A stretch of DNA of 64,000 nt, from contig JAYWGM010000061.1 of NCBI GenBank assembly GCA_043778225.1, positions 2,010 to 66,009 on the forward strand, given 5' to 3'. Under the pieces are notes generated by a model. That model worked only from the letters and a program-made list of their open reading frames with translations. It had not been told where the DNA came from and made no database searches. Below are positions 3,350 through 16,428 of the stretch, piece after piece. Positions within the stretch are counted from its first letter, which is position 1. The number at the start of each line of letters is the position of its first letter. The translations under genes were made by a program, and so were the position numbers. The DNA comes from Deinococcales bacterium (lineage in GTDB: Bacteria; Deinococcota; Deinococci; Deinococcales; JAAFIG01).

Positions 3350-3928
3350 ATGCCAAAAACCAAAAAAGAACGCTCCGAACAAACCATTAATGCGGTACTC
3401 GAGGTTGCCGAAAAACACTTCGCCGAATACGGTTACGCACAAGTTTCCACCGATGCACTGGTACAAGAAATCGGCTTAACTCGAGGTGCGCTGTACCATC
3501 ATTTTGGCAGTAAACAAGGTTTATTTGAAGCCGTGGTTGAGCGCATCCATCAAAAAGCTGCCACTGCAATTAGCCAAACTGCAACAGACGACTGGGAAGG
3601 CTTTGTCAGTGGTTGTCTGGCATGGCTCGAGGTGGCAACAGACCCAACCACCCAAAGAATTCTGTTGCTGGATGCACCCGCCGTGATTGGCTGGGGGCGG
3701 TGGCTTGAGCTAGACGCACAATATGGTTCTAAATTACTGCTCGAGGGCATAGAGCATTTAATAAGTACCAAAGTGATTGTGTTTCCATCTGCTCTTGCAC
3801 TGCTGCAATTATTGAACGGGGCAATGAACCAAACTGCTTTGTGGGTGGCTCAATCAAAAACCCCTAAACGAAGCAAAAAAGAGGCTCGAGAAGCACTGGT
3901 GTATCTGCTCAATCGGGTTCGTGGTTAG
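3350..3928 (+). CDS. TetR/AcrR family transcriptional regulator
   Basis: ORF 3230..3928 trimmed to ATG 3350. N-terminal [53 protein letters not shown] is the classic TetR_N signature. Confidence 0.9.
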
Positions 3929-4000
3929 ATTCTAACTCGAGTAGGCTGTAGGCTGGCTCGAGCAATCAAGCCGAATTTCCCGAGTAGACTGGAGAACCTT

Positions 4001-4471
4001 ATGAGTGAAGAATTTTTTTCGGCATTACGGCTTTCCACAGCACTTGGCAGCGCCATTGTTGCAGGGTTTTTTCTGGCATTCTCGAGTACGGTCATGGTCA
4101 CATTGGCGCAACTCGAGCCTCGAGCGGGAATTATTGCCATGCAAAGCATTAACCGTACCGTGCTGAACCCATTTTTTATGCTGAGTTTTTTTGGAACAGC
4201 CATTCTTGCAGTCATTTTAATTTGGCAAGCATCCTCGCGTTTGCCACAAGCCAACGCTATTTTTTGGATACTTGGTGCAGCCATTTATGTTCTGGGTTCG
4301 GTACTCGTTACGATACTATTTAATGTTCCACTCAATAACAGCTTGGAAGCTGTTCAAGCCACCGATGCCAACAGTTTCGAGATTTGGCAGAACTACCTTC
4401 GCAACTGGACATTTTGGAATCATGTTCGTACAGGTGCTTCGTTTGTGGCGGCTGTGCTGCTGCTGCCTTGA
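4001..4471 (+). CDS. DUF1772 (anthrone-oxygenase-like) membrane protein
   Basis: 156 aa, about 4 TM segments. C-terminal NVPLNN...W..Y...W..WNHVRT pattern as in DUF1772. Confidence 0.7.
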   Translation: MSEEFFSALRLSTALGSAIVAGFFLAFSSTVMVTLAQLEPRAGIIAMQSINRTVLNPFFMLSFFGTAILAVILIWQASSRLPQANAIFWILGAAIYVLGSVLVTILFNVPLNNSLEAVQATDANSFEIWQNYLRNWTFWNHVRTGASFVAAVLLLP

Positions 4472-4586
4472 TGGTTTAAGCCCTGAATAACCTCAAAATC
4501 GTTTTCTGAATGAATAAAACAGGTGGATTCCACCAGCTTGCAGGTCTAGGCGGAGGCTCAAGCCGTAGGCATTATTTTTACCAGTT

Positions 4587-4994
4587 CTAAACCAAAAATA
4601 ATTCAACACTGACCCGAAAATAAGCGGCTAGTCTTAGGGCTAGAGTTTTACTGACTTCTCGTTCACTACTCAGCACCCTCGAGAGTAACCCTTGGCTGAT
4701 ACTGAGCGCATTTGCCAAAGCAGTCTGGGTTAAGTTCTGCTCGAGCATCAATTCCTCAAGAACTTCGTTTGGTTGGGCGTTAATAGGGGCTTGCTGGTGG
4801 TTTTCCCAATCGCTGATGTACGAAAACAGCAAATCCACTAGACCACAAATTTTCGGGTCAGATAAGGTGTAACGTTCGGTCAAATCATCGGTAAGCTCGA
4901 GCAGTTGCTGGTACTCCGATTCGTTTTCTGGGCGTTTGATTTGGCTAGTCACAATAAACTGATTCCAAGCGCCAACCACCATTTGTGAACTCAT
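4587..4994 (-). CDS. XRE-type HTH protein, HigA-like antitoxin family (no adjacent toxin)
   Basis: ORF trimmed to ATG 4994 with AAGGAGG upstream. C-terminal HTH LTQTALANALSISQGLLSRVLSSEREVS. Confidence 0.65.
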   Translation of the reverse strand: MSSQMVVGAWNQFIVTSQIKRPENESEYQQLLELTDDLTERYTLSDPKICGLVDLLFSYISDWENHQQAPINAQPNEVLEELMLEQNLTQTALANALSISQGLLSRVLSSEREVSKTLALRLAAYFRVSVELFLV

Positions 4995-5061
4995 GTTGTT
5001 TTTCCTCCTTATGCCAAACGAACATAAATATGTCAATACGGCATAATTCTTTTTCCTGTGC

Positions 5062-5544
5062 TTATTGGGCTGTTCTCGAGTTCAGCAGTTCCTCGAGACG
5101 GTTCAGGGTTTGGTTCATGCCAAATTCCATGCCAGCTTGAATGTGTCCATCGCGGTGTTCTTGGCTCTTATAAAGCAAGTGGCTTTGCAATTGTGTTTTG
5201 CCGTTGTTCTCGGTAAAGGTGGTGGTGACAAGGTAATCCATATCAGGAAGTGGTTCGTACATTTCGCTGTAGACCAATGAAACTGGGCTTGTGATGTCTT
5301 TGTAGACCCCAGAGTGTCCGTGTTGTTTGCCATCTGGGGCTTGTAGCACATAGCGCCAAGCCCCTCCAACACGAAGATCGATTTCGCAAACTATCATGGT
5401 TGAACTGCGTAGCCCATACCAGTTCTTAACGTGTTCTGGAGTCGTCCAAACATTGAACACCAAGTCCCTCGGAGCGTTGAATTCTCGAGTCAGAATCGTT
5501 TCCAAACCAGACGGGAAAGTGAGCTTCAGGGCGTTGTTGTTCAT
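5062..5544 (-). CDS. SRPBCC / AHSA1-domain protein
   Basis: 160 aa. REFNAPRDLVFNVWTTPEHVKNWYG is typical of the Aha1/SRPBCC family. AAGGAG RBS. Confidence 0.8.
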   Translation of the reverse strand: MNNNALKLTFPSGLETILTREFNAPRDLVFNVWTTPEHVKNWYGLRSSTMIVCEIDLRVGGAWRYVLQAPDGKQHGHSGVYKDITSPVSLVYSEMYEPLPDMDYLVTTTFTENNGKTQLQSHLLYKSQEHRDGHIQAGMEFGMNQTLNRLEELLNSRTAQ

Positions 5545-5583
5545 GGATACTCCTTACTAAAACTAAACTCGAGATTGGTTGGA

Positions 5584-6480
5584 TTATTTACTGGCTGCAT
5601 CAAGGAACGGTATCACGGTAGCACTCAAGGCTGAGGACATAAAAATCTGATAATGACTCGTAGCTGGCAGAATAGCCAATTGAGCCTTTGACATTCCCGA
5701 ACCATCCCAACCAGCGTCTTTTTGACCGCCGCCAAGCAATTCAAAGAATTGTGCGGTGTGGGCAGTGCTAATCGAATCTGCATCTCCTGCAACAATCATG
5801 GTTGGTAATTTTAGTTTAGCCACTTCATCTGCCCAGTTGTAATCTTGTACCAGCAATTCACGTATTTTGTTGTGCAGCGTCACCCAGTTCTCTGGCTTTG
5901 GGGCAACACCAACGTACAATTGGTGCGGAGGACTGCCTTTCATTCCTTCAGCAGAGGCTGCGCCCATTTGGGCGTGTTGCGCTCGTAAATCGGCAAACCA
6001 GCCATCACGCTTAAAAGGTGTAGAAACCAGCACAAGTTTACGCACCAGACTTGGGTGCTGAATCGCGGTTCGCAATGCCACACCACCACCGAGCGAGTAG
6101 CCCATGACATCGGCATTGGATAAACCCAAGTGGCGTATGAGACCCGCAATATCATCTGCCATACGCTCATAAGAAAGTGGGCGGTTAATGTCGGCAGTTC
6201 GTCCATGGGCTTGTAAATCTACGGCGATCACTTGTCGTCCTTTGGCGAGTTGAGGCAACACTTCGCCAAACATTTCTATTGCCCCAAGTCCGCCGTGCAA
6301 CAGAATAACGGGTTGTCCTATGCCATGAATTTGATAGTAGAGGTTCAGTCCATTGACGGGTGCATAACCACTTTTGGTTGCGCTAGAATTGCCAGATTGA
6401 GCTTGCAGATTTGTTGCTAGTAAGGTCGTACCGAGAATGGCGGTGGCTGCGAAAATGTTCTTGATGCTTGGTGTTTGCAT
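5584..6480 (-). CDS. Secreted alpha/beta hydrolase
   Basis: 298 aa. Signal peptide (AILGTTLLATNLQAQS), oxyanion HGG (ILLHGGLG), nucleophile elbow GYSLGG. AAGGAG RBS. Confidence 0.85.
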   Translation of the reverse strand: MQTPSIKNIFAATAILGTTLLATNLQAQSGNSSATKSGYAPVNGLNLYYQIHGIGQPVILLHGGLGAIEMFGEVLPQLAKGRQVIAVDLQAHGRTADINRPLSYERMADDIAGLIRHLGLSNADVMGYSLGGGVALRTAIQHPSLVRKLVLVSTPFKRDGWFADLRAQHAQMGAASAEGMKGSPPHQLYVGVAPKPENWVTLHNKIRELLVQDYNWADEVAKLKLPTMIVAGDADSISTAHTAQFFELLGGGQKDAGWDGSGMSKAQLAILPATSHYQIFMSSALSATVIPFLDAASK

Positions 6481-14297: not shown

Positions 14298-15104
14298 ATG
14301 CGCTCATTTCTTTTGATGCTGGTTTTGTTCGGGGTCGTGGCGTGTGGCACAAACGATACCAAAAACGATGCCAACCAAATTACGGTCGTCAATACAGCTC
14401 TGACTTTAGCCTATAACCTCGAGCCATATAACGAAGAATTGCGGGTGACGGGCGGACAACGGGCATACACACTGCGAATTGCCAAAGGTAAATTGCCAGA
14501 TGGGATTCAACTCCAAGGCTCGAGGCTGGTTGGCACAGCCAAATTGGTCTTAAAAGCCAACGAGCAAAGAATTTTTGAATTTACGCTCGAGATTATTGAT
14601 TCACGCAATGCCAATAAATTCCAAGACCTCAAACTCGAGGTGCGGAGTTTACCCGCCCCAAGTCTTGAATGGAGCATACCGCCAACCCAAGTGCGCGACG
14701 AAGTGCGCTTGCCGTTTGTGCTCAAAATCCCTAAAAATGTACGTTCAATGCGCCTAGCCATTCCGCTTCCAACTGGCGCAACCTTAAAACGCCTTGAGCC
14801 AAGCGCTGGCAGACCCTTAATGCTCTCGAGGCTCGAGGGGACAGTCCTGCGAATAGATGTAGCGCTGTCTGAGGATATTCCCAGTGTTCGCCCTGCCACA
14901 ATCTTTTATTTGGTTTTGGCGTTGGCAAAACCCTTAAAGCTCGAAGGGAAAATTGGTTTTGAACTCAGGGCAAAAAATACGCTTTTGTCTAAGGCAGCCC
15001 TCGAGTTACCGAAACCCGCTACAACTACACCAACCACACCGACCACACCAACCACACCACCAGTCAGCCCTCCAGTCACGCCACCCGCTGGAGGCACACC
15101 ATGA
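14298..15104 (+). CDS. Lipoprotein with Ig-like region and Pro/Thr-rich tail
   Basis: Signal peptide plus lipobox LFGVVAC. Putative-Ig-like segment GGQRAYTLRIAKGKLPDGIQLQGSRLVGT. C-terminal TTTPTTPTTPTTPPVSPPVTPP. First gene of an ATGA-coupled trio. Confidence 0.65.
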   Translation: MRSFLLMLVLFGVVACGTNDTKNDANQITVVNTALTLAYNLEPYNEELRVTGGQRAYTLRIAKGKLPDGIQLQGSRLVGTAKLVLKANEQRIFEFTLEIIDSRNANKFQDLKLEVRSLPAPSLEWSIPPTQVRDEVRLPFVLKIPKNVRSMRLAIPLPTGATLKRLEPSAGRPLMLSRLEGTVLRIDVALSEDIPSVRPATIFYLVLALAKPLKLEGKIGFELRAKNTLLSKAALELPKPATTTPTTPTTPTTPPVSPPVTPPAGGTP

Positions 15105-15640
15105 AACGCTTTTACCTTTTTACCTTCTTGACCCGAAAAATGCACCTAACGGGCTGGGTCGCCTTTTTACCTTTTACCCTTTTCCCCCTCGCCCTCGCCC
15201 TCGCCACAACCTACCCAAAACTGACCCTAGAAACCCAACTCGAGCGAGCCGAAGTGATTACCCGTGCCATGATTAAAGAAGTCAAGCGCGAAGAGCGCAA
15301 CAAGCGCCCTTGGACAGTCTATTTGCTCGAGAATAAGCAATACTGGCGAGGCGAGGGTTTGCTGCCCAAAACCTTAGAAACGCCAAGTTTTGCGGTCTAT
15401 GGAAACGAAAAAATCAGGCTCGAGGGCGCACCCAATTTTAAGGTCGGTACAGAATGGATTTTCTTGTTGTACACCAAAAATTACGACAGCCCAATCGTTG
15501 GTTTTAACCAAGGCGCGTACCAACTCGAAGGCAATGCGGTGCTGGATGTTGGCGGTAAGGCAGTGCAACTCGAGGGGAAACCCGCCACTCGAGTCACCTT
15601 TATTGCTGCCGTCGAGAAAATCCTTGGGGTGGTCAAATGA
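15101..15640 (+). CDS. Secreted hypothetical protein
   Basis: ATGA overlap with the upstream gene. Hydrophobic N-terminus ending ALALA. Alternative in-frame ATG at 15140. No family recognised. Confidence 0.5.
   Translation: MKRFYLFTFLTRKMHLTGWVAFLPFTLFPLALALATTYPKLTLETQLERAEVITRAMIKEVKREERNKRPWTVYLLENKQYWRGEGLLPKTLETPSFAVYGNEKIRLEGAPNFKVGTEWIFLLYTKNYDSPIVGFNQGAYQLEGNAVLDVGGKAVQLEGKPATRVTFIAAVEKILGVVK
15108..15205. repeat. Degenerate TTTTYACC-type octamer arrays (two blocks), then CCCTCG x3
   Basis: GCTTTTACCTTTTTACCTTCTTGACC at 15108-15133 and GCCTTTTTACCTTTTACCCTTTTCCCCCTCGCCCTCGCCCTCGCC at 15161-15205. Confidence 0.7.
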
Positions 15641-16428
15641 AACGCCAACTTTCACCAAGAAAAGTGAAAGCCTTTCACCCTTTCACCCTTTTACCTTTTA
15701 CCCTTTTTACCCTAGCCCTGGCTGCTCCTTTTGCTTACACCGTGGTTAAAGACGGTGCTCCCGAGAGCTTTGAAAAATTAGTGCGTGAAGCCTTTACCAA
15801 ATGGCAAGCTGTTCCCAGCACGACCCTGAAAATAGATGCGCCCAAAGCTGGAACACCTGTTCAATTTAGGTGGGGTAGCACCGACCCCGAACTCAATCCA
15901 GACTTGGCAACCCGCACGATTCTCGAGACCACTGCCGATGGCAAAGAAAGTGCAGTGGTCAGCATTAACCCAGAAGCCACCGACCTCGAAAGTGCTTTGC
16001 TGCTCGAGACGGGTATTCGCCTCGGTTTACCGCTTGAGCCAAGTTGGGAAGGCAAACGCAGCTTAGGCGAGGCAGACATTACGCTGTTGCGTCAACAATA
16101 TGCCCCAAATGGCGACCTGACTGCTGATGGTAAGGTCAACATTGATGACTTTGAATTGTTTGCTCGAGAATACGGCAAAAGTCAGACGGCGGGTGGTATT
16201 AAAGGCGATTTTAACGGCGATGGCAAAGTCGATATTGCCGATTTTGAAATTCTCAAAGGTAATTATGATTTTGGTAAGCAACCGGGTTTAGAAGAACCCA
16301 AGCCAGCCGAGCCGACAACTCCAGCCCCAACAGAACCTAAACCAGCGCCAACCACACCAGCCCCGACGACAGAACCCAAGCCAGCCGAGCCGACGACTCC
16401 AGCACCAGCCACGCCTCCAGCAAAATAG
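15637..16428 (+). CDS. Secreted matrixin-like domain with degenerate zinc site, plus two dockerin-like Ca-binding repeats and a Pro/Thr-rich tail
   Basis: Signal peptide. FTKWQAV.. and ..LLLETGIRLGLPL aligns by eye to the HExxHxxGxxH block of peptidase M10, with all three His replaced. DLTADGKVNIDDFELF and DFNGDGKVDIADFEIL are dockerin/EF-hand-like. EPKPAEPTTPAP is repeated. Confidence 0.6.
   Translation: MKRQLSPRKVKAFHPFTLLPFTLFTLALAAPFAYTVVKDGAPESFEKLVREAFTKWQAVPSTTLKIDAPKAGTPVQFRWGSTDPELNPDLATRTILETTADGKESAVVSINPEATDLESALLLETGIRLGLPLEPSWEGKRSLGEADITLLRQQYAPNGDLTADGKVNIDDFELFAREYGKSQTAGGIKGDFNGDGKVDIADFEILKGNYDFGKQPGLEEPKPAEPTTPAPTEPKPAPTTPAPTTEPKPAEPTTPAPATPPAK
15667..15712. repeat. TTTYACC octamer array inside the signal-peptide coding region
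   Basis: AAGCCTTTCACCCTTTCACCCTTTTACCTTTTACCCTTTTTACCC, read directly. Confidence 0.7.

Follow-up and report, generated by a model that had tools for sequence, protein, structure and literature searches.

A Deinococcales operon for a zinc-less matrixin-like dockerin protein, a predicted NTR/TIMP-fold protein and a candidate cohesin-like lipoprotein

The nearest described system to the locus reported here is the Mtz-Tim pair of Listeria monocytogenes, in which an active secreted metzincin cleaves an adjacent lipoprotein resembling the tissue inhibitors of metalloproteinases (TIMPs), and the two proteins interact (Boichis et al. 2021, PMC8235301). According to that study, its authors could trace no further report of a TIMP-like protein from bacteria (PMC8235301). 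Our locus is a three-gene operon on the plus strand of a 64-kb stretch of Deinococcales DNA (contig JAYWGM010000061.1), and that whole stretch is referred to below as the window. Gene 3 encodes a zinc-less matrixin-like domain fused to a dockerin, gene 2 a protein predicted to have the NTR/TIMP fold, and gene 1 a predicted lipoprotein with a tentatively cohesin-like module. Both systems consist of adjacent, co-transcribed bacterial genes that combine a metzincin-type domain with a predicted TIMP-like fold lacking TIMP sequence similarity, and in both one component is lipid-anchored and would act at the envelope. They differ in that the Listeria metzincin is active, whereas the zinc ligands are gone here; in that the enzyme gene comes first in Listeria, whereas here the TIMP-like gene lies ahead of the metzincin-like gene; and in that the Listeria TIMP-like protein is itself the lipoprotein, whereas here it is unlipidated and a third gene would serve as the anchor. 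Listeria has no dockerin or cohesin in its pair. This comparison is based on the descriptions of the two systems.

The Mtz-Tim pair, non-cellulosomal cohesin-dockerin pairs and metallopeptidase pseudoenzymes are all already known. The operon resembles the non-cellulosomal pairs of the Archaeoglobus fulgidus type in combining a dockerin-bearing non-glycosidase with one cohesin-like module where nothing points to a cellulosome. It differs in its cohesin-like module, which falls far short of the Pfam threshold and is carried by a lipoprotein, behind a He_PIG domain; in the long low-complexity tail behind the dockerin; and in that binding is a prediction. The animal pairing of matrix metalloproteinases (MMPs) with TIMPs (M10A/I35) likewise joins a matrixin-type domain to an NTR/TIMP barrel with a strictly conserved free N-terminus. 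In that pairing, however, TIMP Cys1 chelates the catalytic zinc and three disulfides brace the N-domain of the inhibitor, whereas the present proteins lack both a zinc site and Cys and have a Thr at position 1; the present genes are bacterial and translationally coupled, and the matrixin-like domain is about 125 amino acids (aa) long, without the S-loop and its structural zinc and calcium sites. In the serralysin pair AprA-AprI/APRin (I38) a bacterial metzincin also stands beside a small secreted beta-barrel whose N-terminal residues enter the cleft (PMC8235301), but the I38 barrel is a different, eight-stranded one and the enzyme is active and type I-exported. Metallopeptidase pseudoenzymes such as the inactive ADAMs have lost their zinc ligands and kept the fold for protein-protein interaction; the examples in the main-text passages of a review belong to other families such as the M12 ADAMs, and a term search of its main text gave no passage on a bacterial M10-type pseudoenzyme (PMC11266112). 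Our literature searches found no zinc-less matrixin-like domain fused to a dockerin, no operon in which such a protein is coupled with a TIMP-fold protein and with a cohesin-like lipoprotein, and no report of the wider module of gene-2-like proteins and matrixins described below.

The features of the operon, in window coordinates, are the following.

14298..15104, plus strand: gene 1, open reading frame of 268 aa; predicted lipoprotein with signal peptide and lipobox, He_PIG Ig-like domain, cohesin-like domain and Pro/Thr-rich tail
14298..14345, plus strand: gene 1 signal peptide and lipobox LFGVVA-C16, with VVAC after a hydrophobic stretch
14382..14636, plus strand: He_PIG (putative Ig) domain, gene 1 residues 29-113, Pfam PF05345
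14700..15002, plus strand: cohesin-like domain (tentative), gene 1 about residues 135-235
15006..15101, plus strand: Pro/Thr-rich tail at the end of gene 1; its last codons hold the GGAGG of gene 2 (15090-15094)
15101..15640, plus strand: gene 2, open reading frame of 179 aa; predicted secreted NTR/TIMP-like beta-barrel
15110-15126 and 15165-15187 (gene 2), 15671-15713 (gene 3): 8-nt repeat tracts from tandem-repeat finding
15626..15640, plus strand: gene 2/3 junction, GGGGTGG ribosome-binding site and then the ATGA overlap, an overlap also kept in the intact-matrixin sister module
15637..16428, plus strand: gene 3, open reading frame of 263 aa; predicted secreted pseudo-matrixin with dockerin and low-complexity tail
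15724..16107, plus strand: zinc-less matrixin-like domain, gene 3 residues 30-157, without His or Cys, assigned by HHalign to MMPs
16003..16035, plus strand: degenerate zinc motif LETGIRLGLPL, gene 3 residues 123-133, equivalent to HExxHxxGxxH, its three His replaced by Leu, Ile and Leu, respectively
16111..16257, plus strand: type I dockerin, gene 3 residues 159-207, with calcium loops at 16114-16149 and 16207-16242
16282..16425, plus strand: Pro/Thr/Lys/Glu-rich tail, gene 3 residues 216-263, predicted disordered, with a predicted local distance difference test score (pLDDT) of about 50

Gene 3 and the architecture of the operon

Comparison of gene 3 with its relatives indicated that the zinc site had been lost to different extents in two clades. 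A search of 1.84 billion representative proteins with a profile of the N-domain only (A3) identified 29 proteins, most of them 240-335 aa in length with the layout of signal peptide, N-domain, dockerin and low-complexity tail; the named members were from Trueperaceae or Truepera. The motif of the Trueperaceae clade reads LLHETGxxxG[LVI] and is followed in most members, 7-14 residues on, by M-x-P (GVMNP). In this clade the first His, the Glu and a Met-turn-like element are therefore kept, and the second and third His are gone. The window clade retains just the Glu plus the Gly and Leu residues of the motif and has no Met in the loop corresponding to the Met-turn. Residues L121, L122, E124, G126, R128, L129, G130 and L133 were invariant in the 23 aligned of 36 gene 3 homologs, and D89, E124, G126 and G130 were invariant across both clades (32 aligned relatives). 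None of 61 gene 3 relatives had HExxH.

The relationship of this domain to the matrixins was evident from profile comparisons. The templates for MMPs, TIMPs, cohesins, astacin and snapalysin were used only after confirmation of their Pfam family, the six human MMP templates being confirmed as Peptidase_M10 at 209-227 bits. Aligned by HHalign with the catalytic domains of these six human MMPs, the combined gene 3 family gave 92.7% (P 4.3e-7, 128 columns), and the Trueperaceae clade alone gave 92.1%. The active-site helix, the Met-turn and the C-terminal helix were all in register with the MMPs, with HExGxxLGL on HExGHxLGL, gvMnP on alMyP, and L..dD...L on LsqDDIxGIQ. The observed score of 45.7 compared with 11.9 +/- 2.1 (maximum 19.8, at most 2.6%) for 100 column shuffles. 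The reversed sequence gave 0.1%, as did the gene 3 family against TIMPs and against cohesins. In addition, Pfam Peptidase_M10 matched nine of the 32 family members below threshold (best 21.0 bits vs 24) at profile positions 111-157, and the AlphaFold2 model of gene 3, which is of low confidence (mean pLDDT 62), had a secondary structure order, beta-alpha-beta-beta-beta-alpha-alpha, that fits a minimal zincin without the S-loop.

With single templates, HHalign gave 25.5% for MMP-3, 20.7% for snapalysin (M7) and 0.1% for astacin. Filing gene 3 with snapalysin, an assignment prompted by its HETG string, was considered and rejected: single-template HHalign cannot split M7 from M10, and Pfam favours M10 by nine matches to one. 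At the gathering score PF00413 matched neither the window protein nor its clade, and Pfam, NCBIfam and PDB sequence searches with the window protein returned nothing for its N-domain, the dockerin being the only part recognised. As the domain lacks the defining features of M10, we refer to it as matrixin-like, not as a matrixin. Based on these sequence comparisons, we conclude that the N-domain most probably derives from an M10/M7-type metzincin and would be unable to bind zinc canonically. In the HHalign register the invariant D89, T92 and R93 lie on the edge strand and L121-G130 on the active-site helix, and selection therefore appears to be concentrated on the former cleft.

Three larger proteins, P0079 (2196 aa), P0092 (2213 aa) and P0098 (836 aa), matched the N-domain profile at about positions 41-111, 4 to 12 times each. 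All three were without the ExxG..G motif, and these matches may represent a repeated beta-element related to part of the N-domain, or may be compositional.

A first-pass annotation, made from the sequence of the window, had described three genes linked by ATGA at 15101 and 15637 and had read gene 3 as a pseudo-matrixin that had lost all three His ligands. The reading frames and the ATGA start/stop overlaps (15101-15104 between genes 1 and 2, 15637-15640 between genes 2 and 3) were as described, as were the strings that it had quoted (LETGIRLGLPL, loops of the form D-x-[TN]-x-D-G-K-V-[ND]-I-x-D, and the Pro-rich tails). The family comparison with the MMPs bore out the pseudo-matrixin call, and intact metal ligands elsewhere in gene 3, which would have spoken against it, were absent, the mature domain being without His or Cys. 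Indeed, there is no His in the mature parts of any of the three proteins, and their sole Cys is the lipobox Cys16 of gene 1. Each downstream gene is preceded by a Shine-Dalgarno-like sequence within its upstream neighbour: GGAGG within gene 1, 6 nt before the gene 2 ATG, and GGGGTGG (15626-15632) within gene 2, 4 nt before the gene 3 ATG.

The same arrangement was conserved in relatives. Homologs were identified for gene 3 (n=36, 50-100% identity), gene 2 (n=20) and gene 1 (n=14). The order 1-2-3 and both 4-nt overlaps were present in every related locus containing the junction (L001-L017, L020 and L021; 26-88% identity). Gene 1 was directly upstream of gene 2 in the related loci containing that region, with the exception of L018; L011 starts inside gene 2, and the position of gene 1 is not visible there. 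A scan of one genome per species identified 14 loci, all from metagenome-assembled genomes of uncultured Deinococcales or Deinococcota, and the 1-2-3 order was seen in all 14 (in L011 as far as the locus extends) and in a 5-Mb Deinococcales chromosome. As the flanking genes vary from locus to locus, the cassette appears to be self-contained. A promoter and terminator scan of the locus was uninformative. Directly upstream of gene 1 in the Trueperaceae locus L016, on the same strand, lies a gene (3487-4365) for a 292-aa protein that gave weak leucine-rich-repeat matches.

Gene 2 and the sister module with intact matrixins

The gene 2 protein has a signal peptide (residues 1-35) ending in Ala, and the mature protein is predicted to start T36-T37-Y38 (A/TTY). 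Residues A35, T36 and T37 were invariant in the gene 2 alignments, and Tyr38 was replaced by Phe in one relative (L012). The AlphaFold2 model (pLDDT 78.9, predicted template modelling score 0.69) showed a beta-barrel with a short N-terminal helix and a C-terminal helix. The first-pass annotation had proposed structure prediction and Foldseek searches for genes 2 and 3. For gene 2 these were informative: the matches to the PDB were dominated by the NTR domain of PCOLCE (E 7.5e-4), agrin NtA, TIMP-1, TIMP-2 and N-TIMP-3, the NTR/TIMP matches having a probability of 1.00 and E values of 7.5e-4 to 1e-2. For the full-length gene 3 model only the dockerin was matched significantly; the matches to MMPs were not significant, a result weighed further below. 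HHalign of gene 2 against four TIMP N-domains was weak but in register (15.6%, P 0.0017, residues 11-52 on 11-52), with cross-controls at 0.1%. Foldseek of gene 2 against viral structures gave no significant match, and a phage origin is therefore unsupported.

Several observations count against a TIMP relationship for gene 2. The Foldseek TM-scores were modest (0.33-0.60), there was no sequence match to TIMP or NTR in Pfam (PF00965, PF01759) or in the PDB profile search, and gene 2 has neither Cys1 nor any TIMP disulfide. HHalign of the distant gene-2-like family, introduced below, against the TIMPs also found nothing. Given the lack of a PDB sequence match and this null result, we place the relationship with TIMPs at the level of the fold only. 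By predicted structure, then, gene 2 is an NTR/TIMP-type OB barrel, and its binding or inhibition of a metzincin is putative, supported indirectly by the conserved neighbourhood with matrixin-type genes.

The signal-peptide-encoding parts of genes 2 and 3 contain tandem 8-nt repeats, TTTTACCY and CCTTTTAC, in up to 5.4 copies. Similar octamer tracts occur at the same place in orthologs, CCTTTTGC in gene 2 and GGCGAAAG (complement orientation) in gene 3, and the N-terminal lengths of the gene 2 and gene 3 orthologs vary widely. Because eight is not divisible by three, a change in copy number would shift the frame, and the tracts may mediate phase variation.

A scan of metagenome contigs with the gene 2 alignment identified distant gene-2-like genes in soil metagenomes (loci L022-L031). 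HHalign of the two families gave 99.4% (E 3.8e-21, 139 columns), in an alignment that begins at mature residue 1, a Thr in both. In six loci (L023, L025, L026, L029, L030 and L031) the gene-2-like gene shares 4 nt with the next gene, reading ATGA where checked (L023 and L026), and the downstream protein carries an intact zinc motif, HELGHVLGL[AD]HS[DN] (HELGHVLGLAHSD). A TLM Met-turn and DDxxGAxAIY were present in the sister loci that extend far enough; in L024 the 4-nt overlap is kept and the contig stops before the zinc motif. The three sister matrixins scanned exceeded the Peptidase_M10 gathering score of 24 (29.1, 36.2 and 30.1 bits), and HHalign of the sister matrixin family against human MMPs gave 96.8%. 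The first-pass annotation had raised the question of whether orthologs elsewhere retain HExxH. Gene 3 relatives do not, but intact matrixins were reached with gene 2 as the anchor.

The complete sister matrixins (L023, L026, L029 and L030) end in GANSCA..., a hydrophobic stretch and an RRxRRxN tail, which together are MYXO-CTERM-like, a sorting signal that has been described (PMC11980579). NCBIfam gave a weak match of the sister matrixins to a myxosortase-dependent metalloprotease family. The translations of the sister matrixins show no separate prodomain between the signal peptide and the enzyme, and the small upstream protein may supply latency to them in trans.

The sister module thus resembles the Deinococcales operon in its homologous small protein, in the same order and 4-nt overlap, and in the matrixin-type domain downstream, whereas it differs in that the enzyme keeps its zinc motif, Met-turn and DDxxGAxAIY and has a Cys, a transmembrane segment and an Arg-rich tail in place of the dockerin. 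A direct comparison of the gene 3 family with the sister matrixins was in register but gave only 6.9% by HHalign, which weighs against a closer connection; we therefore claim the same module, position and superfamily for the two, and not orthology. As the gene-2-like genes are coupled to intact matrixins, the pairing of a small protein with a matrixin-type protein is likely to be ancestral. From the sequences, the small protein and the matrixin-type gene appear to be a conserved coupled pair, with the enzyme intact in some lineages and predicted to be dead in Deinococcales.

The dockerin of gene 3 and the gene 1 lipoprotein

The presence of dockerin-type repeats in gene 3, as the first-pass annotation had proposed, was confirmed. 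Pfam PF00404 (Dockerin_1) scored 31.5 bits for gene 3 against a gathering score of 22.9, and matched 29 of 32 gene 3 family members. The gene 3 family profile found solved dockerins in the PDB at E 2.9e-7, and Foldseek with the gene 3 model found X-dockerin structures at a probability of 0.97-0.99; the pLDDT was 79-87 over residues 160-210. The EF-hand geometry was as expected of a dockerin, with two 12-residue calcium loops, DLTADGKVNIDD (residues 160-171) and DFNGDGKVDIAD (residues 191-202), each followed by a helix (residues 169-178 and 200-209, respectively). The third position of loop 1, Thr in the window protein, is occupied by Asn in many relatives. Calcium-dependent binding of a cohesin by this dockerin is a prediction.

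Gene 1 is a predicted lipoprotein, in agreement with the first-pass annotation, which had also noted an Ig-like segment and a tail rich in Pro and Thr. Its VVAC lipobox has the consensus for signal peptidase II, and Cys16 was conserved in at least 90% of the gene 1 alignment (A7). The He_PIG match was weak in the window protein (19 bits, below the gathering score of 24), and PF05345 matched 15 of 16 gene 1 family members, with a best E value of 1.2e-10.

The same annotation had suggested that gene 1 or gene 2 might be the partner of gene 3 and that genes 1 and 2 be compared with cohesins. For gene 1 the outcome was mixed. A profile of its second domain (A8), which included the Trueperaceae versions, had one significant match in the PDB, 2xdh_A (deposited as COHESIN; E 3.4e-4), in which A8 positions 22-122 align with residues 17-119; with the whole-protein profile the E value was 0.01. 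We take 2xdh to be a non-cellulosomal cohesin of Archaeoglobus fulgidus. Speaking against a cohesin are the dependence of the assignment on this single match, the absence of any Pfam Cohesin (PF00963) match in the 16 gene 1 relatives, even at E values up to 10, and the negative HHalign result for the domain against three clostridial type I cohesins (0.3%). Given that negative result, the cohesin call stays tentative, and we describe the second domain as possibly cohesin-like. The earlier suggestion of a partner can nevertheless be sharpened: both genes are probably partners of gene 3, through different modules, with gene 1 contributing a cohesin-like domain and gene 2 a TIMP fold.

The compositions of the gene 1 and gene 3 tails change together from clade to clade: in the window clade both tails are rich in Pro and Thr, and in the Trueperaceae locus L016 (4491-6945) both are rich in Asp and Glu; the gene 3 tail is acidic in the Trueperaceae relatives. 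A Pro/Thr-rich tail also ends one gene 2 relative (L019). Tandem Repeats Finder identified a 9-nt repeat at 15022-15059 in the gene 1 tail.

Over the window as a whole, the palindrome CTCGAG occurs 405 times, compared with 8.9 +/- 3.2 expected from dinucleotide shuffles, and is the commonest hexamer, mostly as in-frame Leu-Glu. The related Deinococcales loci L001-L015 carried 3.6-8 copies per kb, and L016-L021, which are more distant, 0-1.9 copies per kb. It looks like a lineage-wide highly iterated palindrome.

A proposed non-catalytic envelope complex

Based on these findings, we propose with moderate confidence that the products of the three genes form a stoichiometric envelope complex without catalytic activity, and that this complex originated from a bacterial matrixin paired with an inhibitor-like protein. 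In this complex, gene 3 would be a protein that has lost all its zinc ligands and kept the cleft-forming helix and edge strand, fused to a calcium-binding dockerin and a disordered tail. The free N-terminus of gene 2, Thr-Thr-Tyr, generated by signal peptidase, would occupy the vestigial cleft of gene 3 in the manner of a TIMP in an MMP. The N-terminal amine of a TIMP contacts the catalytic Glu of the MMP that it binds, and this Glu is the sole catalytic residue kept in gene 3 of the window clade. The cohesin-like module of gene 1 would capture the dockerin and so tether the pair to the envelope. We infer both of these physical interactions, that at the gene 2/gene 3 cleft and that of the dockerin with the cohesin-like domain. 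The 4-nt overlaps, with ribosome-binding sites inside the upstream genes, would couple translation so that the three parts are made in matched amounts. The function of the complex would be adhesion, scaffolding or ligand capture, and not proteolysis.

The most substantial alternative is that the three proteins are co-expressed and form no single complex, the dockerin binding another cohesin or just calcium, gene 2 being a generic OB-fold protein with its own ligand, and the operon reflecting shared regulation or export. The low-GC relative L018 bears on this directly, as its genes 2 and 3 have the usual 4-nt overlap (4471-5978) and there is no gene 1 within the 11-kb locus, which includes 5 kb upstream, where the genes are on the opposite strand. 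An adjacent gene 1 is therefore no strict requirement for the dockerin, which is a point against the proposed complex. The single PDB match behind the cohesin assignment, the restriction of the TIMP signal of gene 2 in sequence to a weak HHalign result, and the appearance of OB-fold proteins (PheRS B, SSB-like) lower in the gene 2 Foldseek list also agree with this alternative. It has difficulty, however, with the 4-nt overlaps at both junctions throughout the family and in the sister module, which are hard to explain without a need for matched amounts, with the constant position of a matrixin-type gene downstream of gene 2 homologs, and with the concentration of gene 3 conservation at the former cleft, and we consider it unlikely. 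A little less probable still is that gene 2 encodes a functional inhibitor directed at other, active metzincins, whether the cell's own or those of competitors or predators, with gene 3 as a dockerin-tethered holder or decoy in protease defence or regulation. The inhibition of metzincins by TIMP-fold proteins is established knowledge, and an inhibitor or latency role would be natural in the sister module, where the homolog of gene 2 is the partner of intact matrixins; Listeria Tim, too, is acted on by an active Mtz (PMC8235301). Yet no open reading frame of the window has an intact metzincin motif, and gene 2 is without the zinc-chelating Cys1 group of TIMPs.

The other two alternatives concern gene 3 itself. 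Its N-domain may not be derived from a metzincin at all, with ExxG..LGL a convergent helix motif. The evidence on this side also weighs against our own assignment: the window clade alone gave 21% by HHalign against the MMPs, and in the helix A region only, so that the matrixin link is a transitive one, via the Trueperaceae relatives; the gene 3 model had a pLDDT of 62, and its Foldseek matches to MMP-13, -3, -2, -1 and -10 were not significant (E 0.3-1.6); and Pfam was blank for the N-domain of the window protein. Convergence is nonetheless very improbable in view of the full-length family alignment with the MMPs and its clean shuffle and cross-family controls, the nine independent sub-threshold Pfam M10 matches, and the fact that gene 3 holds the position of the intact matrixins downstream of gene 2 homologs. 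That gene 3 is still an enzyme, with a non-canonical site around Glu124 and Asp89, is hardly credible: both residues were invariant in all 32 aligned relatives, but the mature domain has no His or Cys, HExxH was absent from the whole set of relatives, and we know of no zincin (clan MA) that works without metal ligands.

A fuller history of the non-catalytic complex is possible, and we offer it tentatively. An ancient bacterial module may have coupled a TIMP-fold protein to a matrixin, independent of or ancestral to the animal MMP-TIMP system, with a free Thr plugging the active site. The enzyme would then have died stepwise in Deinococcales, the Trueperaceae keeping His1, Glu and the Met-turn and the window clade the Glu only, while the interface was kept purely for high-affinity heterodimerisation; the sorting signal would have been swapped for a dockerin and a cohesin-like lipoprotein recruited.

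If this history is true, the operon would document how a protease and its inhibitor became fossilised as a structural complex at the cell surface. TIMP-type inhibitors are usually regarded as an animal invention, and the gene 2 proteins would constitute a bacterial NTR/TIMP-fold family coupled to matrixin-type genes, in intact versions in soil metagenomes and in zinc-less ones across Deinococcales. Such a natural series would show how an enzyme-inhibitor interface can outlive catalysis and would bear on the origin of the MMP-TIMP partnership. The pseudo-matrixin/TIMP-like and dockerin/cohesin-like pairs may also provide compact, possibly orthogonal binding modules from non-cellulolytic bacteria, and three families of "hypothetical protein" would gain names.

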